DNA from: an uncultured delta proteobacterium
Lineage (GTDB): Bacteria > Desulfobacterota > WTBG01 > CAIYCZ01 > CAIRTM01
NCBI GenBank assembly: GCA_903881505.1
Contig: CAIRTM010000047.1
Span: 16,248 to 80,247 of the forward strand
Direction of reading: 5' to 3'
Length of the DNA stretch: 64,000 nucleotides
Shown: one piece after another, positions 1,400 to 36,618 of the stretch
How positions within the stretch are numbered: the first letter of the stretch is position 1
Layout: every line of letters begins with the position of its first letter
Program-made: the position numbers and the translations under genes
The notes under the pieces: generated by a model
The model's database searches: none
What the model was told of the DNA's origin: nothing
Seen by the model: only the letters and a program-made list of their open reading frames with translations

Positions 1400-1604
1400 T
1401 TTTAAAATAAAGCGTTCCAGCCATACGTGCCCACAACACATTCCCGGGGCAGCATGAAAAGTCCGCACAGCGCCGGCATTGCATCCCGGAAGGCTGATCT
1501 GGCGCCGTTCAAGGATACACGACAATTATGATGCGAACCGGCAGGCCGCCCTCTGCCCTGCGCCCTCAACACACATAACCGCCCACTATACACAGTTCTC
1601 TGCC

Positions 1605-6346: not shown

Positions 6347-6354
6347 TACATGCT

Positions 6355-12566: not shown

Positions 12567-13394
12567 CTAGAGGTTGTACATGTCGTGCAGAAGCCTGACC
12601 AGGGCGATGTTGTCGGAATGCCCGGTCATATTCGCCGTGATTTTCGCCCTGAGGGGACGGCCGAGCAGATAGAGATCGCCCACCATATCCATAATCTTGT
12701 GCCGCACGAACTCGTCCGGGAATCGCAGGTCCGTGTTCACGATTTTTTCATCATCAATCAGGATAAAATTATTGAGCCGGCCCCCGCTTGCCAGGCCGCG
12801 CTCATTGAGCGCCTCGATATCCTTCAGGAACCCGAACGTGCGTGCCGGGGCGATCTCGCGTTTGAAATCCTCGGCATCCGCCATGACGAACCTGTATTCC
12901 TGCCGGCCGACCGGCCGGGGATAGTTCAGGGTATAGTGAACCGAAAATACATCGGCAGGCTCAACCGTCAGGAATTTCTTCGTACGATCGGCCTCGCCCA
13001 GGCTGTGGCGCCTGTCGACAATGATTTCATCCAGGGGTTCTTCCTGCTCTTCAATCCCGGCGTCCTCGACCATCTGGCAGAAATCAAGGGCCGATCCGTC
13101 CATGATGGGAACCTCGTTATTGATCTTGACCATCAGGTTCGAAATCCGGTAGGCATGCAGAACCGCCAGGAGATGCTCGATGGTGCGGGCCGCCGCCCCG
13201 TCAGCCTGCAGGCTGGTTGCATAGTCGGTCGACACGACATGGTGTATATTGGCCCGTACCGTTTCACCGCTTGATATATTGCCGAACAGTATCCCGCTGC
13301 CCGGGGGCAGCGGCGTCAGGATAAGCCCGGTCTTGTCGCCGGAGTGCAGCCCGCGGCCGCTCAGCACCATGCTGCGCTTGAGCGTGCGCTGCAT
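12567..13394 (-). CDS. lpxC: UDP-3-O-acyl-N-acetylglucosamine deacetylase LpxC
   Basis: MQRTLKRSMVLSGRGLHSGDKTGLILTPLPPGSGILF matches the LpxC N-terminus; HKIMDMVGDLYLLG and other conserved blocks are present. ATG at 13394. There is no stop codon between it and the upstream regulator ORF (see findings). Confidence 0.8.
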   Translation of the reverse strand: MQRTLKRSMVLSGRGLHSGDKTGLILTPLPPGSGILFGNISSGETVRANIHHVVSTDYATSLQADGAAARTIEHLLAVLHAYRISNLMVKINNEVPIMDGSALDFCQMVEDAGIEEQEEPLDEIIVDRRHSLGEADRTKKFLTVEPADVFSVHYTLNYPRPVGRQEYRFVMADAEDFKREIAPARTFGFLKDIEALNERGLASGGRLNNFILIDDEKIVNTDLRFPDEFVRHKIMDMVGDLYLLGRPLRAKITANMTGHSDNIALVRLLHDMYNL

Positions 13395-14735
13395 GCGGTG
13401 CTGCGTCCGGTTCTCCCGCGTCAGGATGATGTTGTATTCGCCGACATACTTCTTGAGCTGCTTTTCACTGACGCCGATCCGTGCGGCCGTTCGCTTGATA
13501 TCACGGTCATTGCGGCGCAGGTGGTACAGCAGGAAATTCTTGCGCCAGGCATCCTCGGCCTCCTTCATGGTGGCGTAGCGCTCGTGGGAACGCGAAACGT
13601 TGTACTGCATGTCGTCGCGCACGGAAAGAGGAATATCAAGCGCTGAAACGGTCCTGGAATGCAGCGACACTACGATCTTCTCAACCAGGTTCTTCAGTTC
13701 CTTGACATTGGCGGGCCAGTCGTAGTTCATGAGCATTTCAAGCGCCTCGTCATCGAAGCTCTTTTCCCGCACGCCGTACTCGCTGCAGGACAGGGTCATG
13801 AAATGCTTGAGCAGCAGCGGGATATCGCCGCGGCGCTTGCGCAGCGGCGGCAGGCTGATGCGCTCAGGGAAAGAATCTGCAAACGCGGCCGAGAGTTTGC
13901 CGGCCGCGCGCGCCTCATCGGCCTCAAGGACCGATGAGGTTACGACGCGCAGCTGCGGGTCCGCCTGGCGCTTGCGCAGAAATTCCGCGATGCGGTCCTG
14001 CAAAGCGATATCAAGCGCCTCCGCCGAGGCAAGGTACACGACCGCCCGGCCCGGCTGCGTCAGCAGCCCTGCCTTGCCGGAACTGTCGCCGAACAGTTCC
14101 AGGGAAGCCTCGTCGCAATCGTAAAGGGGACAGTTGAGCCTGTGGAACGAAGCGAAACGTCCGCTTTTCTCGCCGCCAATCAGCATCCGGGCCGCGATCT
14201 CCTTGCCGGTACCGACCTCGCCGCTCAAAAACACATGTGCTTTTGTCGCGGCAATTTTATCAATACGCCTGCGGATGTCGATAATCTCCGGCGCCTCACC
14301 GGTCAGCCTGCTGCGTTCGCGCGCAGCGGCGGACCCATCGACTGCCGCGGCGGCCTGCGCGGCGGCCTGCCATTTCTCGGTAATGCGCCTGACGGTATTG
14401 AGCACCACGTCGAGCGAAAAAGGCTTCTCGAGGAAATCAAACGCCCCCTGTTTCACCGCCTACACGGCCGTGTTGACCGTGCCGTGGCCGGTCATCATGA
14501 CCACCTCGATCGCGGAGTTGAAATCCTTGACGGCTTTCAGGGTTTCCATGCCGTCCATGCCGGGCAGCCATATATCCAGAAACACGATATCGACCGGCTG
14601 CGACTTGATAATGCGCATGGCCTGCGCCCCGTCGGATGCGCTCAGCAGCGTGTAGCCTTCGTCTTCAAGGCTGCCGGCAAGCGATGTGATGATGTTCTGC
14701 TCATCGTCTACCAGGAGGATGACCGGTGTTTTCAT
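13395..14735 (-). pseudogene. ntrX: NtrC/NtrX-family sigma-54-dependent response regulator, interrupted by an in-frame TAG and lacking its own stop codon
   Basis: Receiver domain (ORF 14460..14735, LLVDDEQNI...DIWLPGMDG), then TAG at 14460-14462. The frame continues as AVKQGAFDFLEKPF..., with Walker A GEVGTGKE, a sigma-54 AAA+ domain and a Fis-type HTH (AARIGVSEKQLKKYVGEY). It reads straight into lpxC after an 11-aa linker. Confidence 0.6.
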
Positions 14736-18652: not shown

Positions 18653-20203
18653 ATGCAGCCCGCCCATGAGAAGATCATCGTCCTGGACTTCGGCTCGCAG
18701 TACACGCAGCTGATCGCCCGCCGCATCCGCGAAAGCCGTGTCTATTCCGAGATCCACCCGTTCAGCATACCGCTTGAAGAACTGCGCGCGCTCAATCCCC
18801 GGGGCATTATTCTCTCCGGCGGCCCGGACAGCGTCTATGATCAGGACGCACCCCTGGTCTCAACCGAACTCTTTGACCTGGGCGTGCCGGTGCTCGGCAT
18901 CTGCTACGGCATGCAGCTCACCAGCCACCTGCTGCAGGGCCGGGTCGCGGCGCATACAAAGCGCGAATACGGCCGGGCAGACCTGATCATCGGCAACAAC
19001 GAAGACCTGTTCGCCGGTTTCTCCGCGGATGAAAAGATACCGGTATGGATGAGCCACGGGGACCGCGTGGAGGAAATGCCGGCCGGGTTCGAAATTATAG
19101 CCCGCAGCGCAAATGCGCACTGCGCGGCCATCCGCCACCGCGGGCGGCGCATCTTCGGCGTGCAGTTCCACCCCGAGGTCGTGCACACTCCGCAGGGCAC
19201 GAGGATACTTGAAAACTTCATCTTCACGATCTGCGCGTGCAAACCCAGCTGGACCATGCGCTCGTTCATCGACTACTCAATCGAGCGCATCCGCGCGGCC
19301 GTCGGCTCAAAAAAGGTGCTCTGCGGATGCAGCGGCGGCGTCGACTCGACCGTTGCGGCTGTTTTGATCGACCGGGCCGTCGGAAGCCAGCTTACCTGCA
19401 TTTTCGTCGACAACGGCCTGCTGCGCAAAAATGAATTCACCTCCGTAACGCGCCTGCTGCGCGACACGTTCAGCATCAACCTCATCCCGGTTGACGCATC
19501 GCAGCGTTTCCTGAGCCGCCTGGCGGACGTCGGCGATCCTGAAAAAAAGCGCAAGATCATCGGCCATGAATTCATCGCCGTGTTCGAGCAGGAAGCCGCC
19601 AAGCTCGGGGCAATCGACTTCTTGGCGCAGGGAACGCTGTACCCGGACGTGATCGAGAGCGTATCGGTCAAGGGCCCCGCGGTAACCATTAAAAGCCATC
19701 ACAATGTCGGCGGCCTGCCCGAGCGCATGCAGATGCGGCTGCTGGAGCCGTTCCGTGAACTGTTCAAGGACGAGGTGCGCGAGATCGGCCGCGAGCTGGG
19801 CATACCCGAGGAGGCCATCATTCGCCAGCCCTTTCCCGGCCCGGGCCTTGCCGTGCGAATTGTCGGTCCCGTCAACAGCGAGGACCTGGAGCTGCTGCGC
19901 GAAAGCGACGCGATCATACTCGAGGAATTCAAGCGCAGCGGATGGTACACCCGTGTCTGGCAGTCGTTCGCCGTGCTGCTGCCGCTCAAAACCGTCGGCG
20001 TCATGGGCGACAAACGCACCTACGAAAAAGTCATCGCCCTGCGGGCGGTCGAAAGCCGCGACGCCATGACCGCCGACTGGGCCGAACTGCCCCGCGACCT
20101 GCTCAGCACCATCTCCAACCGCATCATCAACGAGGTCAAGGGCATCAACCGCGTTGTCTACGACATTTCCTCCAAGCCGCCCAGCACGATCGAGTGGGAA
20201 TAA
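18653..20203 (+). CDS. guaA: GMP synthase (glutamine-hydrolysing)
   Basis: GATase domain (GICYGMQL), an ATP-PPase SGGVDS motif, and the C-terminal dimerisation domain ending IEWE. Confidence 0.9.
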
Positions 20204-20242
20204 ACAATTTTAGGGCATTTTCGATTTTAGCATAACCGGTTT

Positions 20243-20422
20243 GTATGGATTATCCTCATGCATCCATCGGCTGAGCTTGAATCAAGGCCTGTCATTTCGA
20301 CCGCGGGGAGAAATCCTGGTTTTAAGATTTCTCAGCCGCTTTTCCATCCTCCGCAGCAGGCTGCTGCGGAGGACGGGCGCTCCTTCGAAATGACAGTATG
20401 GCTGCGATACTTTGAAAAATGC
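20243..20422. repeat. composite intergenic repeat, copy A (conserved left and right arms flanking a ~112-bp insert with an internal inverted repeat and GC hairpin)
   Basis: Left arm tgtatggattatcctcatgcatccatcggctgagc and right arm aaatgacagtatggctgcgatactttgaaaaatgc. Both match copy B at 58484-58573; the right arm differs at 1 of 36 positions. Confidence 0.45.
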
Positions 20423-20436
20423 TCTAAACGCACCCA

Positions 20437-21186
20437 TCAATCTTCAAATATACTGAGCACACCATCACCGCCCCCGTTTTCACGTATCGAAAGCTCCGCA
20501 TCGGCAACTTTTTTAAACAGGCCCGAGAGTGCCTGGTCTGCGACATACCGGCCCAGTTGCTCCTGCGTTACTGCCTGCACAGCCTCGGCCTGCTGCTGAG
20601 CGGTTTCGATCTGCTGCTGAACATCCGCCGCCGCCGCAATTGCCTGGTCCGCCGTTTCCCTGGCTTCCTGCAGCCTGCCATACAGCTCGACGGCCCCGTT
20701 GAGATGGAGCTCTTCGGTTATCGCAGGCACCAGGGCCTCCCGCACGACTGCGCCGCCCTTTTCTTTCAAATAATCGGTGGCGGCGGTATTGCCGGCATCC
20801 AGCAGATTCTCAAGGGTGGGCGCATCCATATTCGTCACGATATTTTTCAGGGCAGGCCCGGCCGCCGGAATAGTATGTTCAGCCGCCTGGTTTATCAGGG
20901 TTTCCAGCAGCGCTGCCTGCGGATTTTTCTGCACATCCCTGGCGATACCGATGGCCAGCCCCAGGGGCGGAGGCAGCAGGATGCGCACCAGCGGGTCATC
21001 GAGAAACCCGCCCTTCGCCGCCAGCTGACCGACCACCGAATCAATACCGTTTGTCAGCCGCTGGCCGAATTGATCGGCTAAGAACTGCTGGACCTTGACG
21101 TGTGCGGTCTGCTGGACGCTGTCGACAAAAGAGGCACAGGAAGACACAAACATTGCTGCCAGCATAAGTATTGCACTGCGACGCAT
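20437..21186 (-). CDS. DUF4197-like secreted/lipoprotein
   Basis: Signal peptide MRRSAILMLAAMFVSSCASF. The mature part is rich in Q/A/L and resembles DUF4197. Start placed at 21186; ORF track extends to 21261. Confidence 0.5.
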   Translation of the reverse strand: MRRSAILMLAAMFVSSCASFVDSVQQTAHVKVQQFLADQFGQRLTNGIDSVVGQLAAKGGFLDDPLVRILLPPPLGLAIGIARDVQKNPQAALLETLINQAAEHTIPAAGPALKNIVTNMDAPTLENLLDAGNTAATDYLKEKGGAVVREALVPAITEELHLNGAVELYGRLQEARETADQAIAAAADVQQQIETAQQQAEAVQAVTQEQLGRYVADQALSGLFKKVADAELSIRENGGGDGVLSIFED

Positions 21187-21493
21187 AACGATCCCCAAAA
21201 AGTATCCATTTATAACAACACGAAAATCAGCGACACTATACTGATTTTGTATTTTTATCAATCGGAATTAACATGGTGTCCCCAGATTTGCCCCAACCCT
21301 CCCGCTTTTTTGCTAAAAAAGTCGGATTTTACGAAGTTCGTATAACATGAGAATAGCCATGTTATGCGAAATTACGACATCAAATTCATTGACTTTCACA
21401 TGCTTTAAATATATCGTCCGGCCATCATAACCAGCCAAAATCCACCAAACCGGAAGTTCGCATATTAATTGTTAGACAAACGAAAAATAAATT

Positions 21494-22129
21494 ATGACAT
21501 ACCACGACCCACTCACTCAGCTCCTCATTTCGCTTGTAACAACTCTTGCTCTATCTGTTTTAGTTTTGTTGTGTTACAGAAACTCAACCGCCAATCAAGA
21601 CCAAAAATATTTAACCTTTTGGCCAAGGTTCTTTTCCCCCTTGGTTGATGGCCTTTTTCTGTGGCCACTAACCGAATTAATACCTTATATCTTAAGTTTT
21701 GAGCTTCCTACATTCATCGCACTCATACTTTGGTTCACACAAAGTATTGGTTGGTATGTGTATCAGGTTTATATGCATGGCAAATACGGCCAGACATTTG
21801 GCAAGTGGGCTTGTAAAGTGAAGGTAGTAACTTTCAGAGATGAAAAAAATATTAATTTTAGAATAGCATTGCTTCGCGATAGCATTCCAATCGTACTTTT
21901 TGTGTTGGTTCTTATCGTTTACTTTTATCTCATAGTTGCAGGCAGGCTCACAGTTTCTGAACTATATCGCCCAACCCCTGAGAGCATTCAAACACATTTA
22001 TATCTTTTACTCATACCAATGCTTTGGTTTTTTGCAGAGTTAATAACTATGCTCACTAACAAAAAAAGAAGAGCGCTACATGATTTCATTGCTGGAACAG
22101 TAGTAGTTAGAACGAACATAACAGATTGA
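21494..22129 (+). CDS. RDD family membrane protein
   Basis: 211 aa with TM helices. Conserved R...D...D pattern (GQTFGKWACKVKVV...RRALHDFIAGTVVV) typical of RDD. Confidence 0.55.
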   Translation: MTYHDPLTQLLISLVTTLALSVLVLLCYRNSTANQDQKYLTFWPRFFSPLVDGLFLWPLTELIPYILSFELPTFIALILWFTQSIGWYVYQVYMHGKYGQTFGKWACKVKVVTFRDEKNINFRIALLRDSIPIVLFVLVLIVYFYLIVAGRLTVSELYRPTPESIQTHLYLLLIPMLWFFAELITMLTNKKRRALHDFIAGTVVVRTNITD

Positions 22130-22203
22130 TCTTAAAACAGACATAGGGGAGGTGCTATAAAGATACTATAGCCATCGATTAAATCATTTGGACAATATTA
22201 CAC

Positions 22204-23043
22204 ATGCCGACAGAAAAAACCTTCAACGCTAATGCTGTCGAACTAAATTATTTTGACGCCGGGGTTACTTCGGCAGATCCGCTCATTATGCTCCATGGGG
22301 GCGCGTGGTGCTGGCAGGAATATCTTTCTCTTATCCCCAGCCTGGCAAAAAGATGGCACATCTATGCGCTGGACCTCAGAGGGAATGGCCGGTCAGCCTG
22401 GGTTCCCGAAACGTATCGCTTGCAGGATTTCGTTGAAGACAACGCGCAATTCCTCAAGCGATTGGATAGGCCGGCAATCCTCATGGGACATTCGATAGGC
22501 GGCGTCATTGCACTCATGCTGGCCGGACAATATCCTGATATGGTGAAGGCACTCATCCTTGAGGATATAGTCCTGACTTTGGACAACTACCGTGGGGTCA
22601 TTGATTCGTGCAGGGATATGTTTGCTCTTTGGCTGAACCTTAAACAATCCGCCAAATCCGAGCAGGAACTCGCCCTGGCACTGGCTGAGGCCTACAGGGA
22701 TTACCCGGGGGTAACCAGCACATGGATACTGTTTTTTGCTAAATGTCTAAGGCAGCTCGACCCCACATTTTTCAATGCGCTGCTCCACAATTTCGAGGGC
22801 TTTGCCGCAGGATATGATTACAAACATATAATGAAAACGATCAACTGCCCCCGGCTGTTTCTGCGAGGTGAACCCAAGTTGGGAGCGGTAATGACGGATG
22901 AAGAAATCTCATGGCTCCAAAAACATTGCAGCAACGCGAAATGTGCTTTGATTGACGGAGTCGGCCATTTGCTCCATCTTGATCCACACGGCCAGACGCC
23001 GGTGCTGACTGAAATAGTAGAATTCCTGGACAAAAGCAAGTAA
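22204..23043 (+). CDS. alpha/beta-fold hydrolase
   Basis: HGG oxyanion motif (IMLHGGAWCW), nucleophile elbow GHSIGG, and a C-terminal His (DGVGHLLHLD). Confidence 0.65.
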   Translation: MPTEKTFNANAVELNYFDAGVTSADPLIMLHGGAWCWQEYLSLIPSLAKRWHIYALDLRGNGRSAWVPETYRLQDFVEDNAQFLKRLDRPAILMGHSIGGVIALMLAGQYPDMVKALILEDIVLTLDNYRGVIDSCRDMFALWLNLKQSAKSEQELALALAEAYRDYPGVTSTWILFFAKCLRQLDPTFFNALLHNFEGFAAGYDYKHIMKTINCPRLFLRGEPKLGAVMTDEEISWLQKHCSNAKCALIDGVGHLLHLDPHGQTPVLTEIVEFLDKSK

Positions 23044-23170
23044 CAGCCAATAATATAAGAACTCCCAACACGTCAATGCTGCGGACAGCCGTTGGCCGCC
23101 GCTGATATTTACGTTAGTTTTTAAAATATCATGGGTCAAGACCCAACTGAAATGTCAGTGGGGGTTACTA

Positions 23171-23731
23171 ATGGTAAAAAATTCCGAGGAATATAATCTA
23201 CACATTCAGAACATGGAGATGTACGCACATGGTGCAAAAGATAAAAATATATCTGTTTTTCAGTTTCTTTATGAAAATGTCGGTCTGGAAACTGACCTTG
23301 CCAATGAATTGATTAGCAACTGGACTCCTCCCGAAAATCACACATCGCCCGCAACACTGGAATCAAACACGGCTCAAACAGGAAATATAACTTTACAATT
23401 AGATAATAATACGGATGCATGGGATAAGATTGGATATTTTATAAGCGCTTTGATTTGGAATATCGCAATCGTTTCTGCTGCGTGCTTTCTTGCAGCCTGG
23501 GGACTCGATATATTCGGATCTCTTATTGAAAGTGAAATAATTCGCGGTGTTGCATATGTGTTTGCATTATTAGCTACTATGTCAATGTTTTGGTTTGGCT
23601 TACTCGCGGGAATACTTTCCGTATCTATTACATGCAAAAAATGTGGTTCTCGCATTATGACATTGAACCCTCCATTTTTCGTCTCTTTAATAAAATGCAC
23701 GTGCGTTAATTGTGAAAACAAGAATGCCTAA
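23171..23731 (+). CDS. hypothetical membrane protein with C-terminal Cys-rich tail
   Basis: 186 aa in the low-GC island. Two or three hydrophobic helices, then CKKCGSR...CTCVNCENK. No recognisable family. Confidence 0.35.
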   Translation: MVKNSEEYNLHIQNMEMYAHGAKDKNISVFQFLYENVGLETDLANELISNWTPPENHTSPATLESNTAQTGNITLQLDNNTDAWDKIGYFISALIWNIAIVSAACFLAAWGLDIFGSLIESEIIRGVAYVFALLATMSMFWFGLLAGILSVSITCKKCGSRIMTLNPPFFVSLIKCTCVNCENKNA

Positions 23732-24014
23732 CAAATCGCTCGAGAATCGACGCGCTTAAATTCACGCGCGCCTCAGCTCAATCGTTACAGTATCTCGCAG
23801 CGTTTCCATCTCCTCCAGCCTGCGCAGCCCAGCGCGCACCGGCAGCACGACCACGCACGCGCTCATAATCAGGGCGAACGAGGCCGCGATTTTGATCCAG
23901 CCAAACCCGTCCAGTTCGCGGCCCTGAAACGCCGCCGTCACCGGCAGAAGAGCGGTATCGGGACAGGCGCATTACGACCTGAAAACAGTGCGCGCGACGC
24001 AGAAAGCGGGTCCG

Positions 24015-24063: not shown

Positions 24064-26313
24064 TTATCGCATGGAAAGCTGGCGGGTGATAAAAGCCCGG
24101 ATGGATTCGTTCAGATGGCGCGCTTCAAGCTCCGCCAGAAACCCATCCCATACCAGGGCATGGCGTTCAGCGGGCATCTGCTCCATCAGGCTGATGCAGC
24201 GCTGCCATTCAATCTCGAGTCCGCGCGCGTACATATCGCAGCTGAGCATGTCCGGCGGCAGGAGCCTGCGCCAGTAACGGCACAGCGTTTCAGCAAAGCC
24301 GCTTCCCACGCCGCGGTAAAAATCATCCTGCAGCGCGGCATCGAGTTTCCCGCCGACCGAGCTGTCGAGCGGATAATTGAGCGCATGCAGGGGATCAAAA
24401 AGCATCTCCGCGCCGACAAGCCTGCCGATACCCTGCACCGCACGCCCCCGGTATGCCGCCGGCACGGCATCAATATCGCGCATGAACAGGCCCTCGACCG
24501 TGCGGTCGTCATAGGCGCTCACGCGGTCGGTAAACTGCGGGCTGTATTCATTGACACTGCCGTTTCTGAAGCGTTCCAGGAACGCCCTGAAGAAAAACCG
24601 CTCTGAGGCCGGCATATTGCCGAGCAGCGCCGGGCGGTTCAGCAGAAAACCGTAATAGCGGTAGCCGAGCACCTGGGCGCCCCAGTTCGTATAAAAAATA
24701 TCGGGATAGCGCCCGGCGAGCGCCTGCACCCATGGCGCCTGCGCCTGCTCCGGCATGGCGTGCAGCACACGCAGCAGCCCGTATACAAGCGCGCCGCGCC
24801 ACGCCGCGGGGGTTTTTTCAATATAGCCGGCAATGCTCTCCGCCGGATCGGGCGTATCAAGCGCGCCAGAAGCAAGCCGGGCCGCCAGGGCGCGGAAGGC
24901 CTCCTCGCGGTTGTCATCCGGATAGCCTGCCGCAAGGGCTTCCGCGCTGCTGAACCCGGATGACCAGCGTGACGGGATCATCAGGCGGCTGGCATACTGG
25001 TCAAAGTTATACCCCTGGTACAGGAAAATTCTGCGCTCGTCCCCGCGCGAGAGCAGCCCTGCCGTACGCGCCAGATTGAACGCCGCGACCAAAACCACGA
25101 CAGACCATGCACAGGTTTTAAGGATCCCCGAGCGCGAAGCGGACAGCAGTGCCAGGCCGATGCCCGCGCACGCGAAATAAAAAGGGAAAAGAATGGTCAC
25201 CCACCGGCAGCGGATCACGTCGGCAGGCGCGAAGCTGGCGAATACGCCGATCGTGGGCCAGTATTCGAGCGGGTTGACCTGCATGGGGGAAAGAGCAAGG
25301 CACACAAGGAAAAAAACCGGGAACAGGGCGACAAACAGGCACAGCCGCTGCGGCACTGCGGACCGACGATTCCCTCCCCCGGGCAGGGCATTAACCGCGG
25401 CGGGAGCGCGCACGGACGCGGCTACGACAGCAATGCACGCTGCCAGCAGCAGAAGCGCGACGGCAGCTCCGGCCCAGCCGATCTCGCGTGAAGGGTAGCC
25501 GTAGCCCAGCGTATAGGGCACGGTATGGAAAAACGTCTGCGCAAACGATGCGGGCGACAGTGAAATGTTTTTAAAAAGTCCTGCCAGGAAGCTCCCGCCG
25601 CCGGCCGAGTAAAAGGCGGTGCGCCACAGCCAGGGCGCAAAACCGGCAAGGCCTCCCGCGCACAGGGCGCAGATAGCGCGCAAAGAAATCATCCGCGGCC
25701 TGCAGACAAGCACGAACAGCATGCAGAACGCGTTGAAAATGATATAGCTGTAGAACGCGTATGTGCCCAGCCCCGCGCACAGGCCGAAAAGACACCACAG
25801 CAGGAGCGGGACCTGTTTCGCATCTTTTTCGAGCATGCGGCAAAGGCATATCAGCTGCACGATCAGAATCTGGTTGATCATGTAATGCGAGCTGAACGTG
25901 CCGACCAGGCTGAGCCGGGCGAACATGGGCGGCGGCAGGGCGAACAGGGCCGCGCACACAAGCGCGGCCGTCCTGCCGCAATAGCGGTTGAGCAGATACA
26001 CCCAGCCGAGCATGCACGCGAGCGTGCTCAACAGCGCGCACAGCTTGACCGTGAACACCGAATGCCCGAACAGGGCTGCCAGCGGATACATGAGCAGGGC
26101 CTCGATCATCATGTCGCCCGAGCGCTGCTCATACTGATAGGCCATGACAGGCGCGCGCAGGGTGCCGTGCAGCAGGTCAAACGTCAGTGTGCCGGATACG
26201 GGCTCATCGAAACAGGGGTGGGATATGTGCGAGAAGCCGTAGAACATCACGGCAAAACGCGATGCGCCATACAGCGCTACCAGCACTATCAGAACAAGAT
26301 AAAAACGCTTCAT
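24064..26313 (-). CDS. GT-C-like polytopic membrane protein (PMT_2/ArnT-like N-terminal half) with ~370-aa C-terminal soluble domain
   Basis: 749 aa. The N-terminal ~380 aa are hydrophobic with more than 10 helices; the C-terminal half is hydrophilic and of unknown family. Confidence 0.45.
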   Translation of the reverse strand: MKRFYLVLIVLVALYGASRFAVMFYGFSHISHPCFDEPVSGTLTFDLLHGTLRAPVMAYQYEQRSGDMMIEALLMYPLAALFGHSVFTVKLCALLSTLACMLGWVYLLNRYCGRTAALVCAALFALPPPMFARLSLVGTFSSHYMINQILIVQLICLCRMLEKDAKQVPLLLWCLFGLCAGLGTYAFYSYIIFNAFCMLFVLVCRPRMISLRAICALCAGGLAGFAPWLWRTAFYSAGGGSFLAGLFKNISLSPASFAQTFFHTVPYTLGYGYPSREIGWAGAAVALLLLAACIAVVAASVRAPAAVNALPGGGNRRSAVPQRLCLFVALFPVFFLVCLALSPMQVNPLEYWPTIGVFASFAPADVIRCRWVTILFPFYFACAGIGLALLSASRSGILKTCAWSVVVLVAAFNLARTAGLLSRGDERRIFLYQGYNFDQYASRLMIPSRWSSGFSSAEALAAGYPDDNREEAFRALAARLASGALDTPDPAESIAGYIEKTPAAWRGALVYGLLRVLHAMPEQAQAPWVQALAGRYPDIFYTNWGAQVLGYRYYGFLLNRPALLGNMPASERFFFRAFLERFRNGSVNEYSPQFTDRVSAYDDRTVEGLFMRDIDAVPAAYRGRAVQGIGRLVGAEMLFDPLHALNYPLDSSVGGKLDAALQDDFYRGVGSGFAETLCRYWRRLLPPDMLSCDMYARGLEIEWQRCISLMEQMPAERHALVWDGFLAELEARHLNESIRAFITRQLSMR

Positions 26314-26375
26314 AGGTCAGCCCTGAACAAGAACGCTCCCCGGCTGCATGCAGTACCGCAGGCATGCCGGCCGTA

Positions 26376-27704
26376 TCACAGGCTCCCGCGCAACGAGACC
26401 ATCTCCCGCGCCGCCTCTGCCGCGCGCATGCCGTCCAGCACGGCATCCTCCATGGCCGAATACACCCAGCGTCCGTAGCGGCCGGCGAGCGCAACGCCGC
26501 TGTCCCGGCACCAGTCCGCAACCATCTTCATGTCGTCGGGATACTCGCGGTGAAAAATGACATAGCCGTTTTCGATCAGGCGATAATCCATGAACAGGAT
26601 ATCATCGGGGCTTTTGAAAAGCCCCATCGTCAGCAGCAGCTCCACGCTTGCGCGTTTGAAGGCGGCTTCATCGGCGAGCGCGCCCTGGTGCGTGTGCTCG
26701 ATATAGGCCGCCGAGCGGCCCGGCGGGGCCATGGGCGCATGCGCGCTGCTGTAGAAGCCGACCCGGTAGGGCATGAAACGCTCTTCGGGAATATAGAACC
26801 AGTGGCCCGGATGCGCCGGCGGCGCTGTAAAGGCCGCGTTGCAGTAGCTGACCGAGGCGATTTTCATGCGGTCGGCAGCCGCATGCAGCCGGTCGGATTC
26901 ACCGCAGCGCACCAGACGCAGCAGATCGCGCAGGGGGATGGTGCTGACCAGCGCGCCGAAGCCGATCTCGTCGCCGCTCGCCAGGCGCGCCACTCTGCGC
27001 CGCATGTCGATGGCGACGGGACGGGCATCGAACATGAAGCGCTCCCGCGGGCACAGGCGGAAAAGAGCGGCCGGCAGCGCCCCGATGCCGCCGCGGGCCG
27101 GGTAGCTGAAGGTCGCGTTATAGCCCGCGCTGTCATGCCCGGGATCGGTGAGCGCGCCGTCGACGACCTGCTCGATGGTCGGCACCGGTATGTAGGTGTC
27201 GCACCAGTGGCAGGCGAATTCGCGCGGATGCACGGTATAGAGCTTTGAATTGTAGGGGATCATGAAATGCCGGGAAATGCCCTCGCCGAGGCTGGCCATG
27301 CACCACTCATAAAAATTCTCCGGCGGCCGCGGGCGGCCGCTTTCATAGCGCGCGCGGATAAAGCCCAGCAGGCATTCCCTGATCACCCGCGGCGGCAGGC
27401 CGAAGGTGTGCGACTGGAACGGATAGCAGGTGACGGTGCCGTGCGAAAAAACATGCGACCTGCGCTCAATCGTGACCCAGTCCACGCCCGGCAGCGAAGC
27501 GGCAAGCCGCCGCATCCGCTCATCGCGCATGTGCAGCCAGTGCCCTGTGCGGTCGAAGACAAAGCCCTGCTTTTCCTCGCTTGTGCACAGGCCCCCGGGT
27601 GCGCTGTTTTTTTCAACCACCAGGTACTCGTCCCCGGCCAGGTGAAAGGCCGCGGACAGCCCTGAAAGGCCGGCCCCGAGGATGAGCGTCCGTGTCGTTT
27701 TCAT
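26376..27704 (-). CDS. FAD-dependent oxidoreductase, amine-oxidase/protoporphyrinogen-oxidase-like (Glf-like not excluded)
   Basis: N-terminal dinucleotide-binding motif ILGAGLSGLSAAFHL...VVEK. Central block ENFYEWCMASLGEGISRHFMIPY. C-terminal LAGRYGRWVYSAMEDAVLDGMRAAE, which is the amine-oxidase family C-terminus. ORF track 26376..27725. Confidence 0.55.
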   Translation of the reverse strand: MKTTRTLILGAGLSGLSAAFHLAGDEYLVVEKNSAPGGLCTSEEKQGFVFDRTGHWLHMRDERMRRLAASLPGVDWVTIERRSHVFSHGTVTCYPFQSHTFGLPPRVIRECLLGFIRARYESGRPRPPENFYEWCMASLGEGISRHFMIPYNSKLYTVHPREFACHWCDTYIPVPTIEQVVDGALTDPGHDSAGYNATFSYPARGGIGALPAALFRLCPRERFMFDARPVAIDMRRRVARLASGDEIGFGALVSTIPLRDLLRLVRCGESDRLHAAADRMKIASVSYCNAAFTAPPAHPGHWFYIPEERFMPYRVGFYSSAHAPMAPPGRSAAYIEHTHQGALADEAAFKRASVELLLTMGLFKSPDDILFMDYRLIENGYVIFHREYPDDMKMVADWCRDSGVALAGRYGRWVYSAMEDAVLDGMRAAEAAREMVSLRGSL

Positions 27705-27883
27705 CGCATGCGCCTTCCTGCGCAAACGGCAGCCTCCGGCATGCCTTGCGCACGCCGGTTCCGAACCCGCTCTGACAGTATTAGTAGATATGCGCCTGTG
27801 TTTTCAAGGAAAAAAAGCACGGGATGCAAAAAAAGAACGGCCCGCCCGAGGGCTGCGGGCGGACCTGATGGCGGCGGCGCGTT

Positions 27884-28870
27884 CTACGGCTCGATGATCG
27901 ACAGCGCGATATCGGCCATCGTGTCGCCCAGGAACTTGTTGAGCGATCCCACGCCCGGATCGTTTTCCTTGTACACGGCCCGGACCTGGCGGCGGCGCTC
28001 GTTGATGAGCCTCATTTCAGGCGACTGCGGGTCGCGGGGCTGCGCCGCCCGGTAGATAGCCAGCCAGGCCTTGAAATAGTCCACCGCGCACTTGTAAATA
28101 CCGGCGACGTTTTCAGGCGTTTTTTCAACCGTGCCGGTGATGATATAGGGCGAGTGCAGCGCCCGCACCCAGTGGAACACGCTTGAGCGCATGCCCGGAA
28201 TGAGCGCGAACTCCTGGTAGCAGTCCTCAAGCTGCTCATAATAATAGTTCTGCAGCATCTGCTGGTTGCGGCCCAGATCGTCGCCGGGCATGAGGTCGCA
28301 GATGAAGAAAATATGCTCATCGGACTCATCCCAGTCCATGACATAATAGGGAATGTCATAGTCGGGAGCCGGCGTCACGATCACGACGTCGGCCACCATG
28401 GTGCTGTAAAAATTCATCCGCGACAGGCCGATCTTCTCGAGCTTGGGCGCCCTGTAGGCGCGGTAGAAGCAGCTGTGGCCTTCGAGGTCGAAGTCATGCA
28501 GGCTGCGTATGTCGGTTCCGGAATGCTCGAGGATCTGCTTCGGAGAAAGTTCCTGCATGATCATGTCGGTCAGATGCTGCAGGATGGGGGTGAATTTTTC
28601 AGCGCCCCGTGCAGCAGGCGCTGCCTCGGCGGTTCGGGGGGCTTCAGCACCGGTTTTGGATGAAACCTTCACGCCGGGTATCGTGATGGCGTCCTGGGGG
28701 CACTCGCGGATGCAGGTCCCGCACTCCAGGCATTTCGTCGGCTCGGTCATGATGCAGAGCCCGTCCTCAAGAGCGAGAATTTTCAGGGGACAGGCATCCA
28801 CGCAGATGCCGCATCCGATACAGCGTTCGGGGTCGACCGTAAAAGCCGTTTTTTTGTTGTCACGCGCCAT
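27884..28870 (-). CDS. 2x[4Fe-4S] ferredoxin domain fused to an FDBR-like (ferredoxin-dependent bilin reductase-like) domain
   Basis: N-terminal CIGCGICVDACP and CLECGTCIRECP motifs. The C-terminal ~230 aa carry PAPDYDIPYYVMDWD (compare PcyA PRPEYDLPMFGCDL) and DPGVGSLNKFLG (compare the FDBR C-terminal DP...FG.DW block). It is paralogous to 34836..35531. Confidence 0.45.
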   Translation of the reverse strand: MARDNKKTAFTVDPERCIGCGICVDACPLKILALEDGLCIMTEPTKCLECGTCIRECPQDAITIPGVKVSSKTGAEAPRTAEAAPAARGAEKFTPILQHLTDMIMQELSPKQILEHSGTDIRSLHDFDLEGHSCFYRAYRAPKLEKIGLSRMNFYSTMVADVVIVTPAPDYDIPYYVMDWDESDEHIFFICDLMPGDDLGRNQQMLQNYYYEQLEDCYQEFALIPGMRSSVFHWVRALHSPYIITGTVEKTPENVAGIYKCAVDYFKAWLAIYRAAQPRDPQSPEMRLINERRRQVRAVYKENDPGVGSLNKFLGDTMADIALSIIEP

Positions 28871-29062
28871 GAGTGGTAGTCCTCCCTGCGTCTATCCCTG
28901 TTTTCCCCGGACTGCATGCACGCAGCCGGCGTTCCAGATACCCGTCCAATACGATTCAGGCCTTTAGTTGGATTTCCAACTATAATGAATATACCATATG
29001 CTCCCGGGCCCCGCAACCAAATATTTGAAAAAATCCGCCGGCGGACAACAGCCGTTTTCCGC

Positions 29063-29163: not shown

Positions 29164-29329
29164 GATGAGTGAATCTGAAAAAGACGACGAGCTTGAAGAG
29201 CTGTTTGCAGCCTTTGACAGACAGTTCGCCGATTGCGAGCAAAAATTCAGCGCGATCGAGGAAAACCTGAAGGTATTTCGTTCCCAGCAGGACGCATCCG
29301 AAGAAACCCCGCCTGAAACGCATGAATAA
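29164..29329 (+). CDS. small acidic hypothetical protein (54 aa)
   Basis: MSESEKDDELEELFAAFDRQF... preceded by a GAGG RBS. ORF track 28916..29329 is probably over-extended at the 5' end. Confidence 0.3.
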
Positions 29330-29709
29330 ATCCGGCGCATGCGCAGAGCCTGCCATAGCGCTGCCATGTAGTACACAGCCGTTCTCCATACTCCCATACC
29401 CGGCATACCAGATACTGCAGTGTCGCACGCTGGTGCCAGCCGCGTAAAAAGCACTGCAGTCCGTGTTTCCGCTGTATTGCACTCGGGCCCGGCAAACAAA
29501 AATCCAAATATTTATTTTTTATTGACAAACAATGCACTATTTCATATATATTAATGATATTTTTGATGTATTGAAGTAGTGCCGGCGTTGACCATGGCCT
29601 GAGAATCCGGCATGAACACCAAGGGATGACACCGACCGGGAAATAATTGCCGCCGGATGGCCCTGTATCGGCACTGCCGGCAGGCATGCCGGGAAATAAA
29701 GGAGAGACG

Positions 29710-29892
29710 ATGCCCGAAATCATGACCCCCAAGGAAGTAGCCCAGTACCTGAAAATGTCCGTGCTGACCGTGTACAAACATGCCAAGCAGGGCACTATTC
29801 CGGGATTCCGCGTCGGCAATTCATGGCGCTTTGATAAAAAGAAAATTGATGAGGTTCTGCTGCGATCATCCGGCCTGAACCCCAGGGCCTGA
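29710..29892 (+). CDS. helix-turn-helix DNA-binding protein, excisionase/MerR-like (HTH_17) family
   Basis: MTPKEVAQYLKMSVLTVYKHAKQGTIPGFRVGNSWRF is a classic excisionase-family HTH. Strong AAGGAGAG RBS. An AT-rich promoter-like tract lies at 29500-29600. Confidence 0.55.
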   Translation: MPEIMTPKEVAQYLKMSVLTVYKHAKQGTIPGFRVGNSWRFDKKKIDEVLLRSSGLNPRA

Positions 29893-34835: not shown

Positions 34836-35531
34836 CTACAGGCCGAAGTGCATGTCAAAGGAGCGCTCGATGCCCCCCTTTTTGCCGAAAAGCACCTGCC
34901 ATATTTTCACGCCGGGATCGTGGTTGACCAGCGTTTTCAGATACTGCTGAAAAACCGCCTGAGTGCTGCGCAATGCATCCCCTGTCTTTATCCCGGCCTG
35001 GTCAACGAGATCGCAGAACAGGTTCAGGTAGTCAAGGTAGATGGCTGTGGCCTGTTCGTCCAGCTCGGGCGGGATAACCACCTGGCAGGCTGCCGGTGAA
35101 AACACATCCTGCACCTGTCCTTTCTGCTTTTTTTCATAGTCCAGCAGGTCAGGGTAGCGGTTGCGGACGGCAAGCATGCGGTAGAACAGGTCATTGTCGT
35201 CATGATGGGTTTTGCCGGTGCGGTGAATGTCGACGATCAGCATTTTTTTCTTTCCGGTGCGCATGACCTCGCCCGCAAACACCGGCAGGTCGTATTCAAC
35301 CCGGGGACGTATGAAATTTGAACAAACGGCAAAGTAGAACGGCAGCTGCGGCCGGATGAACACCACGCGCAACAGGCGCTCCGTGCTGAACACTTCGCCG
35401 TCGATGTTCATCAGGCCGAGCGAGCGCAGCGGCCGCTCGGGGAACGGGTGCTTCAGGGCGACCGGATTGAGCGCGTAGCGTTTGCGCAGTTCGGCCTGGA
35501 CAAGGCCGTGAATGTTCATTAAATCCGCCAT
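34836..35531 (-). CDS. FDBR-like (ferredoxin-dependent bilin reductase-like) hypothetical protein
   Basis: 231 aa. RPRVEYDLPVFAGEVM (compare PcyA FPRPEYDLPMFGCDLVGG) and C-terminal DPGVKIWQVLFG (compare PebA DPAHGLFTSHFG). Paralogous to the C-terminal domain of 27884..28870. Confidence 0.4.
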   Translation of the reverse strand: MADLMNIHGLVQAELRKRYALNPVALKHPFPERPLRSLGLMNIDGEVFSTERLLRVVFIRPQLPFYFAVCSNFIRPRVEYDLPVFAGEVMRTGKKKMLIVDIHRTGKTHHDDNDLFYRMLAVRNRYPDLLDYEKKQKGQVQDVFSPAACQVVIPPELDEQATAIYLDYLNLFCDLVDQAGIKTGDALRSTQAVFQQYLKTLVNHDPGVKIWQVLFGKKGGIERSFDMHFGL

Positions 35532-35566: not shown

Positions 35567-36352
35567 TCAGGACGCATCCGGCCGCGCAAGGCGCGCGCAT
35601 GCGGCCCGCATGACGGCGAGCGCATCCGGGCACAGTTCCCAGGCGGCCAGGCGCTGCCGGTCGGCCCGCATGAAGTTGTCGTCAAACGGCAGCTGTGCCA
35701 GCACATCAAGCCCGTCTGCATGCGCGGTGATAAAATCCGCATCCGCGGCGGTGCGTATCTTGTTGGCAATCAGGCACACGCGCTCAAGGCGCAGGTCGCG
35801 TGCCAGTGTGCGTATGGCGTGCGCGGTTTCAATGCTGCGCATGCCCGGTTCCACGACAACGATCAGGCAGTGTACGGCCTGTGCGGTCGCGCGGCCCAGG
35901 TGCTCGATGCCGGCTTCCATGTCCATAATCACGGCTTCGTTGCGGTACAGTACCAGGTGCTGCATCATGGCCTTGACAACCGCGCTTGCCGGGCAGATGC
36001 ACCCGCTGCCGCCCTGCTTGACCGTCCCCATTTTCAGCAGGCGGATTCCGCCCTGCTCCCGCCAGAGCTTTTCCGGCAGGTCGGCCACGTGCGGATTGAT
36101 TTTGAAAAACGCGCCGACAGCTCCGGCGGCCGCTCCGGTGCGTTCCTCTATGAGGTCCCGCATTGAGGCCAGGGCAGCAATGCCTTCGTCTTCCGGCATG
36201 CCGATTGCAGCGGCAAGGTTTGCGTCCGGGTCGGCATCAAGGGCGATAACGCGTCGGCCTCTTTCCACAAGCGCTCGGCACAGCAGGGCCGCAACCGTTG
36301 TTTTGCCGACGCCCCCCTTGCCGCTTACGGCGATTTTCAGGGCTGTATCCAT
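35567..36352 (-). CDS. CooC-like P-loop NTPase (MinD/ParA superfamily, metallocentre-maturation type)
   Basis: Deviant Walker A IAVSGKGGVGKTT and a CxC motif GGSGCICPA as in CooC/AcsF nickel-insertion ATPases. Start placed at 36352. Confidence 0.6.
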   Translation of the reverse strand: MDTALKIAVSGKGGVGKTTVAALLCRALVERGRRVIALDADPDANLAAAIGMPEDEGIAALASMRDLIEERTGAAAGAVGAFFKINPHVADLPEKLWREQGGIRLLKMGTVKQGGSGCICPASAVVKAMMQHLVLYRNEAVIMDMEAGIEHLGRATAQAVHCLIVVVEPGMRSIETAHAIRTLARDLRLERVCLIANKIRTAADADFITAHADGLDVLAQLPFDDNFMRADRQRLAAWELCPDALAVMRAACARLARPDAS

Positions 36353-36618
36353 GCCGGGCCTGTTCCTTTTGAGGCGCTGCGCCGCTGTACACCTGGAACT
36401 GATCATTTCAAGGCATTTGATGCATTGTTATTTCTAACACACACGACGCTGAACAGCAAGCCCGCACGCAGGTTTGCCGGCAGCGGCCTTCGCCGGCGCC
36501 CCTGCAAAATATTTTCATGCGGGATCATTAAAAAGATTGCAAAAAACAGCCGGTTGAAATACAGTTCAAAAAAAATCACGACAGCCGGGCATACGGTCAC
36601 CGCTGAATACGGACGCAT

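Follow-up and report, generated by a model that had tools for sequence, protein, structure and literature searches.

The window analysed here, a stretch of 64,000 nucleotides from an uncultured delta proteobacterium, carries three consecutive minus-strand genes that raise a double question: does the first encode a ferredoxin-dependent bilin reductase (FDBR) that brings its own electron donor, and do the other two, for a flavoenzyme and a membrane protein, serve the same pathway? A preliminary description made from the sequence alone had proposed both. We found the three open reading frames and the motifs quoted for them exactly where it had placed them.

Architecture and active site of gene 1

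27884..28870, minus strand: ferredoxin-FDBR fusion gene, 328 aa, stop codon included (open reading frame list, Pfam Fer4 and Fe_bilin_red, 89 homologous clusters, AlphaFold, dN/dS)
28673..28870, minus strand: N-terminal 2x[4Fe-4S] ferredoxin domain, residues 1-66 (Cys motifs, Fer4 family matches, kinship to free-standing ferredoxins)
28589..28672, minus strand: flexible linker, residues 67-94 (low pLDDT; gapped, unconserved alignment columns)
27887..28588, minus strand: FDBR-fold reductase domain, residues 95-328, with invariant D179, D192 and D304 (PF05996, Foldseek, profile matches, hhalign onto PcyA)

The N-terminal domain contains two CxxCxxCxxxCP motifs within ~55 residues, CIGCGICVDACP and CLECGTCIRECP, whose eight cysteines (C17/C20/C23/C27 and C47/C50/C53/C57, with proline after C27 and C57) are all conserved in the family alignment. 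This motif pair and the two stretches matched by Pfam Fer4 (50 bits) are those of a clostridial-type 2x[4Fe-4S] ferredoxin. The assignment of the remaining sequence to the FDBRs was borne out by Pfam Fe_bilin_red (PF05996), which matched with 44.1 bits (E = 2.4e-11, profile positions 39-219 of 228) against a gathering threshold of 31 bits. The translation carries TPAPDYDIPYYVMDWDE as well as the C-terminal NDPGVGSLNKFLG, and the blocks cited in the preliminary description are invariant or nearly so in an alignment of 32 family members. The predicted structure agreed: the AlphaFold model is confident (pLDDT 88 overall), apart from residues 73-90 (<50), a disordered linker whose length and sequence vary across the family, and it displays the alpha/beta/alpha sandwich with central antiparallel sheet that characterises the FDBR superfamily. 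Its best 45 Foldseek matches in the PDB were all FDBR or RCCR structures (E down to 2.4e-11, target-normalised TM 0.62-0.78). By sequence and model, gene 1 does encode a bilin-reductase-fold enzyme joined to its own iron-sulfur ferredoxin.

When the family profile was compared with PDB sequences, it recovered HY2 (1.2e-11), PebB (1e-6), RCCR (1e-3) and PcyA (0.29), a ranking that argues against a placement basal to PcyA/PcyX. The PebB/HY2 lineage (tomato HY2, PDB 6KMD/6KME; Guillardia theta PEBB, 6QX6) provided the best profile and fold matches, sharing with the fusion the sandwich, a DLxP strand and a C-terminal (E/N)DPG motif with the distal catalytic Asp. Identity is only 16-18%, however, and a fused 2x[4Fe-4S] domain takes the place, as putative electron donor, of the free plant-type [2Fe-2S] ferredoxin; the hosts, moreover, are anaerobes that do not photosynthesise, and no heme oxygenase is linked to the gene. 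RCCR likewise has the FDBR fold and depends on ferredoxin, as predicted for the fusion; the Pfam RCC_reductase match was weak and below its cut-off (19 bits). RCCR occurs in plants, where its step follows that of an O2-dependent oxygenase. None of the NCBIfam equivalogs for PebA, PebB and PcyA was reached by the fusion, the best being PebB (NF009723, 26.4 bits against 327); the PebA and PebB models scored 26-35 bits against cut-offs of 263-327, and the PcyA model 14 bits against 206.

Of the catalytic aspartate and histidine of FDBRs, to which the preliminary description had drawn attention, the former has a counterpart and the latter does not. In an hhalign alignment onto a single PcyA sequence, weak when taken alone (E = 0.015), invariant D179 and D304 were paired with D105 and D220, respectively, V162 with H88 and S150 with E76; only the Asp105 counterpart of the PcyA Glu76-His88-Asp105 triad is kept, Glu76 and His88 being absent. 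The numbering of the PcyA sequence used here reproduces the known residues. D179 sits in MDWDE and matches the Asp105 position of PcyA and PebS by alignment only, whereas the ENDPG motif that contains D304 corresponds to EKDPG of HY2 and PebB when the family profile is compared with PDB sequences. Together, D179 and D304 align with a proton-donor pair of the PebS/PebA type and are candidates for that role. HY2 differs in this respect, with Asn at the position of the central-sheet Asp (D105) that the fusion retains; it uses instead an Asp at the His88 position.

Fusion family and gene neighbourhoods

Homologues of the fusion comprise 89 clusters with 44-85% identity, nearly all with a precomputed Fe_bilin_red match. 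Their hosts, in 26 GTDB species loci, are uncultured Thermodesulfobacteriota or 'delta proteobacterium' MAGs, together with one Spirochaetota SAG. The dN/dS of the gene against its relatives is 0.09-0.12, and purifying selection on the coding sequence is shown. This is a conserved family of uncultured anaerobic Desulfobacterota, apparently not previously described. A fission counterpart also exists, in which an equivalent ferredoxin is encoded by its own gene directly upstream of an unfused FDBR: in relatives with 52-56% identity, a separate gene for a 2x[4Fe-4S] ferredoxin of 75-79 aa lies 21-54 nt upstream, and these free-standing ferredoxins are 48-52% identical to the fused domain, with 8/8 Cys kept.

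The genes around the fusion are recurrent. An SDR adjoins it in 17 of the 26 species loci and a second FDBR also in 17/26, the usual order having the SDR immediately upstream and the second FDBR immediately downstream. A FAD_binding_4/CCG (GlcD/GlcF-like) pair is found nearby in 11/26 and AFOR in 6/26; PNPOx and TetR recur as well, thiolase and AKR are among the conserved partners, and the conserved cluster includes a 127-aa protein. In the window, the SDR and a second FDBR of the type found in locus L004 are absent within 10 kb of the fusion and, because of their absence nearby, the fusion may play a different role in this lineage from that in the full cluster. The window does hold another FDBR-like gene, 6 kb from the fusion, which the preliminary description overlooked:

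34836..35531, minus strand: standalone FDBR-like gene, 231 aa, belonging to another paralog group (Pfam Fe_bilin_red, homologues, HY2 PDB match)

This protein scored 48.4 bits with Fe_bilin_red and matched HY2 in the PDB at 7.7e-4. It shares 15% identity with the reductase domain of the fusion and 64% with the standalone FDBR of locus L001, and its homologues form >200 clusters, all labelled 'hypothetical'.

Two groups of known enzymes invite comparison with these neighbourhoods. PebA, PebB and PebS of cyanobacteria and cyanophages resemble the fusion in the invariant Asp at the PebS D105 and D206 positions, and the adjacency of pebA and pebB recalls the frequent second FDBR gene. Unlike in the PebA/PebB pair, however, the partner FDBR is a highly divergent paralog (~15-17% identity), and the gene context also differs. 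The pre-PcyA enzymes (pre-1, pre-2, pre-3) are, like the fusion, FDBR homologues from bacteria without photosynthesis and depart from PcyA in its catalytic triad. Their pre-1 and pre-3 clusters contain HO, an Fe-S protein, a V4R pair and a BBAG globin, and pre-2 a B12-binding protein and a globin (Rockwell et al. 2023, PMC10151467). In the fusion contexts these partner genes were not found, their place being taken by SDR, second FDBR, GlcD/F-like, PNPOx, TetR and AFOR genes. A fused ferredoxin is not reported for pre-PcyA, whose Fe-S protein is separate (PMC10151467, PMC13446030), and the taxa differ too: Myxococcota, beta/gamma-proteobacteria and Acidobacteria for pre-PcyA, Thermodesulfobacteriota for the fusion.

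Transcription and the predicted downstream sugar module

28966..29017, minus strand: promoter-like region of the fusion gene, TTGCGG, spacer, extended -10 TGGTATATT, then palindrome AGTTGGAAATCCAACT (from sequence; conserved block with a predicted function)
27829..27865, minus strand: intrinsic-terminator-like hairpin and T-run, the top terminator-like site in 23.7-29.7 kb
26376..27725, minus strand: UDP-galactopyranose-mutase (UGM)-like flavoenzyme, 449 aa as listed (PDB phmmer; Pfam Amino_oxidase and NAD_binding_8)
24064..26313, minus strand: candidate GT-C-fold membrane glycosyltransferase, 749 aa, with an all-helical C-terminal domain, one unit with the UGM-like gene

The preliminary description had joined the three genes in an operon for a 'redox plus membrane-transfer pathway', in which a tetrapyrrole or another conjugated molecule would undergo reduction before its transfer at the membrane. 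They are indeed co-directional, with gaps of ~160 nt between genes 1 and 2 and 62 nt between genes 2 and 3, and their order is kept in the closest relatives (loci L007, L015 and L016). In all three, however, an AFOR gene is interposed between the fusion and the UGM-like gene. In the window, a strong terminator-like hairpin separates genes 1 and 2, 19 nt 3' of the fusion stop codon, with a 10-bp stem (9 GC pairs) and a 7-nt loop; it folds at -23 kcal/mol, with a z-score of only -1.1 that is unremarkable in its GC-rich context. The T-run and the block upstream of the UGM-like gene can be aligned with the spacer between AFOR and UGM in L015, where this conserved block, the gene's own, stands downstream of AFOR. 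Moreover, the flavoenzyme and GT-C pair is not recurrent, occurring near the fusion in only 2/26 species loci, and UGM and GT-C genes (also with GT2) form a module in the distant genomes of L012-L014 without any FDBR nearby. The flavoenzyme, finally, is homologous to a sugar-nucleotide mutase and is no tetrapyrrole oxidase. Because of the terminator, the separate promoter block, the AFOR insertion and the module found without FDBR, we treat the fusion and genes 2-3 as separate units, and a single operon or pathway appears very improbable.

Gene 1 has regulatory signals of its own. The block containing its promoter and palindrome is conserved in L015, L016 and L007, and the perfect palindrome AGTTGGAAATCCAACT (28981..28966) occurs once in the window against 0.06 copies expected by chance; we infer that it is a candidate operator. 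The fusion gene, equipped with a promoter, an operator-like palindrome and a terminator of its own, is probably monocistronic in the lineage of the window, where the cluster would be reduced, while some read-through into the UGM-like gene may still occur.

The class of the flavoenzyme had been given as amine oxidase or protoporphyrinogen oxidase, with a Glf-like UGM as an alternative. The UGM reading is the one that stood, although in a form other than the bacterial one. In phmmer searches of the PDB, residues 9-424 of 449 matched the UGMs of A. fumigatus (3UTE, E = 2.8e-40) and T. cruzi (4DSG, 4e-39), and the next match was MAO at 5e-5; by homology the protein is a UGM-like enzyme of the long eukaryote type. 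The bacterial Glf equivalog TIGR00031 gave only 17.2 bits, its cut-off being 303.75. Protoporphyrinogen oxidase and amine oxidase were rejected, given UGM homology at E 3e-40 versus 5e-5 for MAO; TIGR00562, for the former, scored 19.2 bits against 97.85 and matched only the N-terminal FAD-binding stretch. The start is listed as TTG at 27725, but an ATG at 27704 preceded by an AGGAAGG ribosome-binding site is likelier.

For the 749-aa protein, the GT-C-like reading was upheld by a transmembrane fold of the GT-C type. It belongs to a small family (~20 clusters) with a unique helical C-terminal domain of 320 residues. A possible counterpart of the acidic motif that GT-C glycosyltransferases carry in the first extracytoplasmic loop is D36-E37, invariant just past TM1 in a loop modelled at pLDDT <50, and PMT_2 Pfam matches are found in 4 of 16 homologues and not in the protein of the window. 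We read genes 2-3 as an unrelated cell-envelope sugar module that is not part of the FDBR system. Presumably, the UGM-like enzyme and the GT-C protein would contribute to a furanose-containing envelope glycan via a polyprenyl-phosphate sugar donor. The resemblance to polyprenyl-phosphate-sugar GT-C systems with furanose supply (ArnC/ArnT, GtrB/Gtr, mycobacterial Glf with Aft/Emb), which covers genes 2-3 only, lies in the combination of a UGM-like flavoenzyme with a GT-C membrane enzyme, joined in relatives by a small GT2; the differences are a eukaryote-type UGM instead of bacterial Glf and a GT-C with a unique helical C-terminus.

Proposed chemistry and substrate of the fusion

The explanation that best fits the whole locus, to which we assign a probability of about 0.65, is that of a tethered ferredoxin-FDBR reductase encoded beside a separate sugar unit. 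The clostridial-type 2x[4Fe-4S] domain is joined through a flexible linker of ~25 residues to an FDBR-fold domain that is predicted to be cofactor-free. A low-potential donor would reduce the Fe-S domain, with AFOR and the GlcD/GlcF-like pair as candidates because they are recurrent neighbours of the fusion. Single electrons could then move within one polypeptide from the Fe-S domain to a substrate in the FDBR pocket, with protons provided by D179 (PcyA/PebS Asp105 position) and D304 (PebS Asp206/HY2 Asp263 position), in a radical two-electron C=C reduction such as those of PebA, PebB and HY2. In most genomes, this enzyme would act within a redox cluster made up of the second FDBR, SDR, 127-aa protein, FAD_binding_4 and CCG, PNPOx, TetR and AFOR.

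Most likely, the substrate is a linear-tetrapyrrole-like molecule that is not made locally by heme oxygenase. The preliminary description had seen no heme oxygenase in the window, and our Pfam scan of its ~40 large open reading frames likewise gave no match; none appeared in the annotated neighbourhoods of loci L001-L011 and L043-L046, and a weak tblastn control was also negative. Since the canonical source of substrate is missing, the substrate could be a non-bilin. Canonical heme oxygenase requires O2, and the carriers are anaerobic bacteria that possess AFOR and CCG-type Fe-S enzymes, which speaks against a classical bilin reductase that would convert biliverdin, from unlinked or non-canonical heme cleavage or from uptake, into a phytobilin for a sensor or globin-like protein, with the standalone FDBRs as second step as in PebA/PebB. 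Globin/BBAG, V4R and phytochrome genes were also not found in the examined contexts, and the partners (TetR, SDR, thiolase, GlcD/F-like, AKR, PNPOx, AFOR) seem catabolic or reductive and not chromophore-related. We regard this classical role as unlikely, even though the family conserves the PebA/PebB/PebS-type Asp pair, two FDBR genes are often adjacent like pebA and pebB, and the pre-PcyA enzymes of heterotrophs are active on biliverdin (PMC10151467, PMC13446030).

Alternatively, the FDBR fold might have been co-opted to act on something other than a tetrapyrrole, or to bind or regulate, in which case the cluster would carry out the ferredoxin-driven reduction of an unrelated conjugated compound. 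The abundance of generic reductases and dehydrogenases together with a TetR regulator would suit such a function, as would the distance from all named FDBR equivalogs (PebB, the best, at 26 bits against 327) and the lack of consistent linkage to tetrapyrrole-metabolism genes. This seems improbable to us, since all solved proteins with the FDBR fold bind a tetrapyrrole (FDBRs, RCCR and, distantly, coproporphyrinogen oxidase; PMC13193486) and the invariant proton-donor Asp pair argues for a known type of catalysis.

A more far-reaching proposal, which we advance as speculative and doubtful, is that the fusion and its partners (second FDBR, SDR, GlcD/GlcF-like, PNPOx-class, thiolase, AFOR and TetR) carry out the O2-independent reductive catabolism or respiration of linear tetrapyrroles in anaerobic Desulfobacterota, and that the family, whose Asp pair is PebA/PebB-like and whose nearest resemblance is to PebB/HY2, may be the 'pre-PebA / archae-FDBR' stock still to be found according to Frascogna et al. 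2026 (PMC13446030). If so, the tetrapyrroles could be, for example, bilins of phototroph detritus or products of anaerobic heme cleavage, and the fusion stock would predate the recruitment of FDBRs for photosynthetic pigments.

A ferredoxin-tethered protein of the bilin reductase fold

Gene 1 of the window encodes a conserved ferredoxin-tethered protein with the fold of ferredoxin-dependent bilin reductases (FDBRs), under selection and with an intact PebA/PebB-type Asp pair. It is the first of three co-directional minus-strand ORFs, for which our ORF listing agreed exactly with the preliminary description:

28870..27884, minus strand: gene 1, ferredoxin-FDBR fusion, 328 aa
27725..26376, minus strand: gene 2, flavoenzyme, 449 aa
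26313..24064, minus strand: gene 3, membrane protein, 749 aa

The translation of gene 1 contains two CxxCxxCxxxCP motifs and the blocks TPAPDYDIPYYVMDWDE and NDPGVGSLNKFLG, from which two [4Fe-4S] clusters and FDBR-like blocks had been proposed. Pfam bore out both, with Fer4 at 50 bits in two stretches and Fe_bilin_red at 44.1 bits (E 2.4e-11; gathering cut-off 31 bits) over most of the profile. The FDBR assignment also held at the level of predicted fold: an AlphaFold model computed from the family alignment (pLDDT 88) was disordered only at the N-terminus and in linker residues 73-90, and the first 45 PDB structures that Foldseek matched to it were exclusively FDBRs or RCCR (HY2, PebB, RCCR, PcyA, PebA and PebS; target-normalised TM 0.62-0.78). 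Searched against PDB sequences, the reductase-domain profile matched HY2 (1.2e-11), Guillardia PEBB (1e-6), RCCR (1e-3) and PcyA (0.29). None of the named NCBIfam equivalog models came close, the best being PebB with 26 bits against a cut-off of 327. The Pfam, fold and profile matches thus make the fusion a true member of the FDBR superfamily, yet the equivalog scores set it apart from all the named enzymes.

Among 5.8 billion proteins, we found 89 clusters with the same ~325-aa architecture (44-85% identity) and a few unfused relatives of ~240 aa. Many positions are invariant in the family alignment, D179, D192, D198 and D304 among them, and the dN/dS of the fusion gene in the lineage of the window (0.09-0.12) indicates purifying selection.

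Active-site residues were mapped by profile alignment of the family to what we take to be the Synechocystis PcyA sequence (it reproduces the positions of H74, E76, I86, H88, D105, R149, K221 and V225, and is 248 residues long). PcyA D105 and D220 correspond to the invariant D179 and D304, while H88 and E76 correspond to V162 and S150; the preliminary description had proposed to check the catalytic Asp/His, and here Asp is kept and His is not. HMMER alignments placed the CDLMP strand and ENDPG motif of the family on LDLNP and EKDPG of HY2 and PebB. As judged from these alignments, the fusion has the two-Asp arrangement of PebA, PebB and PebS and does not keep the PcyA triad.

Two unfused relatives of the fusion, P0084 and P0079 (52-56% identical), each have a gene for a 75-79-aa 2x[4Fe-4S] ferredoxin 21-54 nt upstream. 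These free-standing ferredoxins share 48-52% identity with the fused domain and keep all eight Cys. The occurrence of this ferredoxin both fused and split is strong evidence, at the level of the genomes, for the Fe-S module as the reductase's own electron donor, and electrons would pass within the molecule from the Fe-S domain to the reductase domain.

Predicted separate transcription units of the fusion and the adjacent probable sugar genes

The preliminary description had placed the fusion and genes 2 and 3 in one operon serving a single pathway, a tempting but wrong inference that we reject on terminator, gene context and AFOR interposition. A 10-bp hairpin with 9 GC pairs, followed by a T-run, lies 19 nt past the fusion stop codon; no other site in the scanned 6 kb looks more like a terminator. 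The flavoenzyme and GT-C-like genes adjoin the fusion solely in the nearest relatives of the window (the homologous loci L007/L008, L015 and L016), where an AFOR gene is interposed between the fusion and this pair. Distant homologs of the 749-aa protein are encoded beside a flavoenzyme resembling gene 2, a small GT2 and B12-radical-SAM genes, and none of them has an FDBR in its vicinity. In L015, the spacer between AFOR and flavoenzyme gene aligns with the T-run and the flavoenzyme-upstream block of the window; the unit boundary is therefore conserved, and the AFOR has simply been lost from the window. The fusion gene is best read, from its sequence context, as monocistronic.

The AFOR of the closest relatives, ~1.9 kb, is missing in the window (27726..27883 versus L015:10982-13112), whose sole AFOR, at 61758..63680, is just ~31% identical to the L015 type. 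In two loci of distant genomes (L012:8001-12611 and L013:4308-8852), a tandem pair of GT-C-like paralogs of ~750 aa, followed by a UGM-like gene and a GT2, stands opposite two B12-binding radical-SAM genes.

The fusion is preceded by a conserved block that resembles a promoter; it includes an extended -10 and a perfect palindrome, the latter a candidate operator for a regulator. A search of 27700-30100 gave no Rfam match at E<=1 for a riboswitch or leader. The region contains:

28966..28981: perfect 6-4-6 palindrome AGTTGGAAATCCAACT, just downstream of the fusion -10, conserved in L007, L015 and L016 (no more than one mismatch)
29166..29329, plus strand: small conserved ORF of ~54 aa (MSESEKDDELEELFAAF...), divergent from the fusion, with a sigma-70-like promoter at 29099-29128
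29647..29892, plus strand: 81-aa HTH_17 protein, following the ~54-aa ORF

Both of these ORFs are syntenic in L007, L015 and L016.

Gene 2 had been read as a protoporphyrinogen oxidase (PPO)/amine oxidase or, alternatively, as a UDP-galactopyranose mutase (UGM). The second reading prevailed: residues 9-424 match solved eukaryote-type UGMs with E 3e-40, the next match being monoamine oxidase at 5e-5, and the PPO and bacterial Glf equivalog models both score far below their cut-offs. On this UGM match and the PPO score we reject the PPO/amine-oxidase reading. Gene 3 had no sequence match in Pfam, NCBIfam or the PDB; PMT_2 was detected by Pfam in 4 of 16 of its homologs, and D36-E37 after TM1 is invariant. 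On the basis of the UGM-like gene 2, the PMT_2 matches, the invariant D36-E37 and the GT2 of relatives, genes 2 and 3 look like a periplasmic glycosylation module that would take its furanose from a polyprenyl-phosphate donor. The module has no connection with the FDBR.

A low-GC island at ~20200..24000 (GC 0.46-0.49 versus ~0.60) encodes DUF4197, RDD and alpha/beta-hydrolase proteins and a membrane ORF of 186 aa. In L007, L015 and L016, the GT-C gene is followed at this place by a GT2 gene and Ham1, so that the island probably arose by insertion or replacement. Farther away, 1479..9500 is a run of large ORFs (463-602 aa) with no Pfam match save one PMT_2 of GT-C type (3166..4974); it may be another envelope-glycan locus.

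Redox cluster and candidate substrate

Neighbour genes were counted with a tblastn panel over 26 species loci, plus annotated contigs. The fusion is usually embedded in a TetR-linked redox cluster. A second, very divergent FDBR of ~234 aa lies immediately downstream in 17/26 loci and an SDR adjoins the fusion in 17/26, with a FAD_binding_4 and Fer4_8/CCG pair nearby in 11/26 and an AFOR in 6/26. Also recurrent are a 127-aa protein, TetR, a geranylgeranyl (GG)-reductase-family flavoprotein, an AKR-Fer4 protein, PNPOx-class proteins, FMN_red and thiolase.

Around the fusion or its split form in L004:1662-11744, L024, L043:474-14146, L044 and most of L017-L040, the cluster comprises TetR, the GG-reductase-family flavoprotein, a 125-127-aa protein, SDR, the (ferredoxin-)FDBR, the second FDBR, and GlcD-like FAD_binding_4, GlcF/TfrB-like CCG, PNPOx-class, AKR-Fer4, FMN_red, thiolase and AFOR genes. 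Against NCBIfam, the matches of the partners were generic and all stayed below threshold (GG-reductase family, PPOX class, GlcD, TfrB/GlcF-like, SDR), pointing to no named pathway; the 127-aa protein matched nothing in NCBIfam or the PDB.

The 2x[4Fe-4S] domain would receive low-potential electrons, for which AFOR and the GlcD/GlcF-like pair are candidate sources, and reduce the bound substrate by single-electron steps, D179 and D304 being the putative proton donors. As all solved proteins with the FDBR fold are tetrapyrrole binders (PMC13193486; fold matches), a tetrapyrrole-like substrate is probable. Biliverdin made in situ is unlikely, since no heme oxygenase was found among the window ORFs, as the preliminary description had noted, or in any examined homolog context; tblastn with a heme oxygenase sequence over the window and 46 loci also found none, which is a weak negative. 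The main alternatives are that the fusion serves to break down, by reduction, exogenous bilins or the products of anaerobic heme cleavage, or that its substrate is an unrelated conjugated compound. The family points to tetrapyrrole (or related) reductive chemistry, currently unannotated, in anoxic sediments and lakes.

Distribution, novelty and further FDBR paralogs

The FDBRs that make the bilin pigments of phototrophs are known to stand alone and to draw their electrons from a separate ferredoxin; those later found in a few heterotrophs always adjoin, to our knowledge, a heme oxygenase. Their fold and chemistry are known already. In contrast, the fusion family has its hosts among uncultured Desulfobacterota that appear to be strict anaerobes; its 2x[4Fe-4S] donor is built in and has a clear split-gene counterpart, and it sits in a conserved redox cluster without heme oxygenase. 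Of these traits, the fused donor, the anaerobic hosts, the lack of a heme oxygenase and the redox cluster are new as far as we found. A natural self-sufficient FDBR would be useful for mechanism studies and for bilin production without ferredoxin matching, and the family offers candidate deep branches for the question of the origin of PebA/PebB/HY2 enzymes.

Scanning GTDB species with one genome each gave 26 loci, all from uncultured Thermodesulfobacteriota or 'delta proteobacterium' MAGs except one from a Spirochaetota single-cell genome, with 0/26 from cultured carriers. When 1.84 billion cluster representatives were searched exhaustively with a profile, only 191 proteins matched at E<=1e-3. 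Among these the fusion clade collapses to ~3 representatives; next come uncharacterised FDBR-like proteins (230-260 aa), which form a grade, and, only toward the weak end, recognisable PebA-/PebB-like proteins. Database names for the family are limited to 'ferredoxin', '4Fe-4S binding protein' and 'PreA subunit'.

Our literature search found no published description of a ferredoxin-fused FDBR or of FDBRs in Desulfobacterota, in agreement with the earlier remark that a self-carried donor is unseen in characterised FDBRs. The pre-PcyA papers describe heterotroph FDBRs in heme oxygenase, V4R and globin contexts, with no fused ferredoxin (PMC10151467, PMC13446030), and the family accession MCX5899338 and relevant taxon names are absent from the supplements of PMC13193486. 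The accessible text of a 2026 FDBR phylogeny mentions, with no description there, two newly seen, uncharacterised clades; the fusion family may be among them, and one query of that work, 'Unknown D6734_12105', may belong to it.

The window contains another FDBR, 6 kb from the fusion:

34836..35531, minus strand: standalone FDBR, 231 aa (Pfam Fe_bilin_red, 48.4 bits)

It shares ~15% identity with the fusion reductase domain, ~17% with the downstream partner of L004 type and 64% with a standalone FDBR near the fusion in L001. Its family comprises >200 clusters, all annotated 'hypothetical', in variable and uninformative contexts; it has Glu at the PcyA D105 position and keeps the DPG motif. With the fusion, the L004 type and the 34836 type, these Desulfobacterota carry at least three FDBR-like paralog groups. 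The standalone gene adjoins a CbiA/ParA/MinD-like ATPase gene (35567..36406), and a GAF-domain histidine kinase gene (38746..40698, minus strand) lies ~3 kb from it. Elsewhere in the window, in a 629-aa ORF (12567..14456, minus strand), a sigma-54-interaction AAA+ module (residues 52-283) precedes a complete LpxC domain (residues 356-623); the ORF is either an unusual fusion or an in-frame read-through of two genes.
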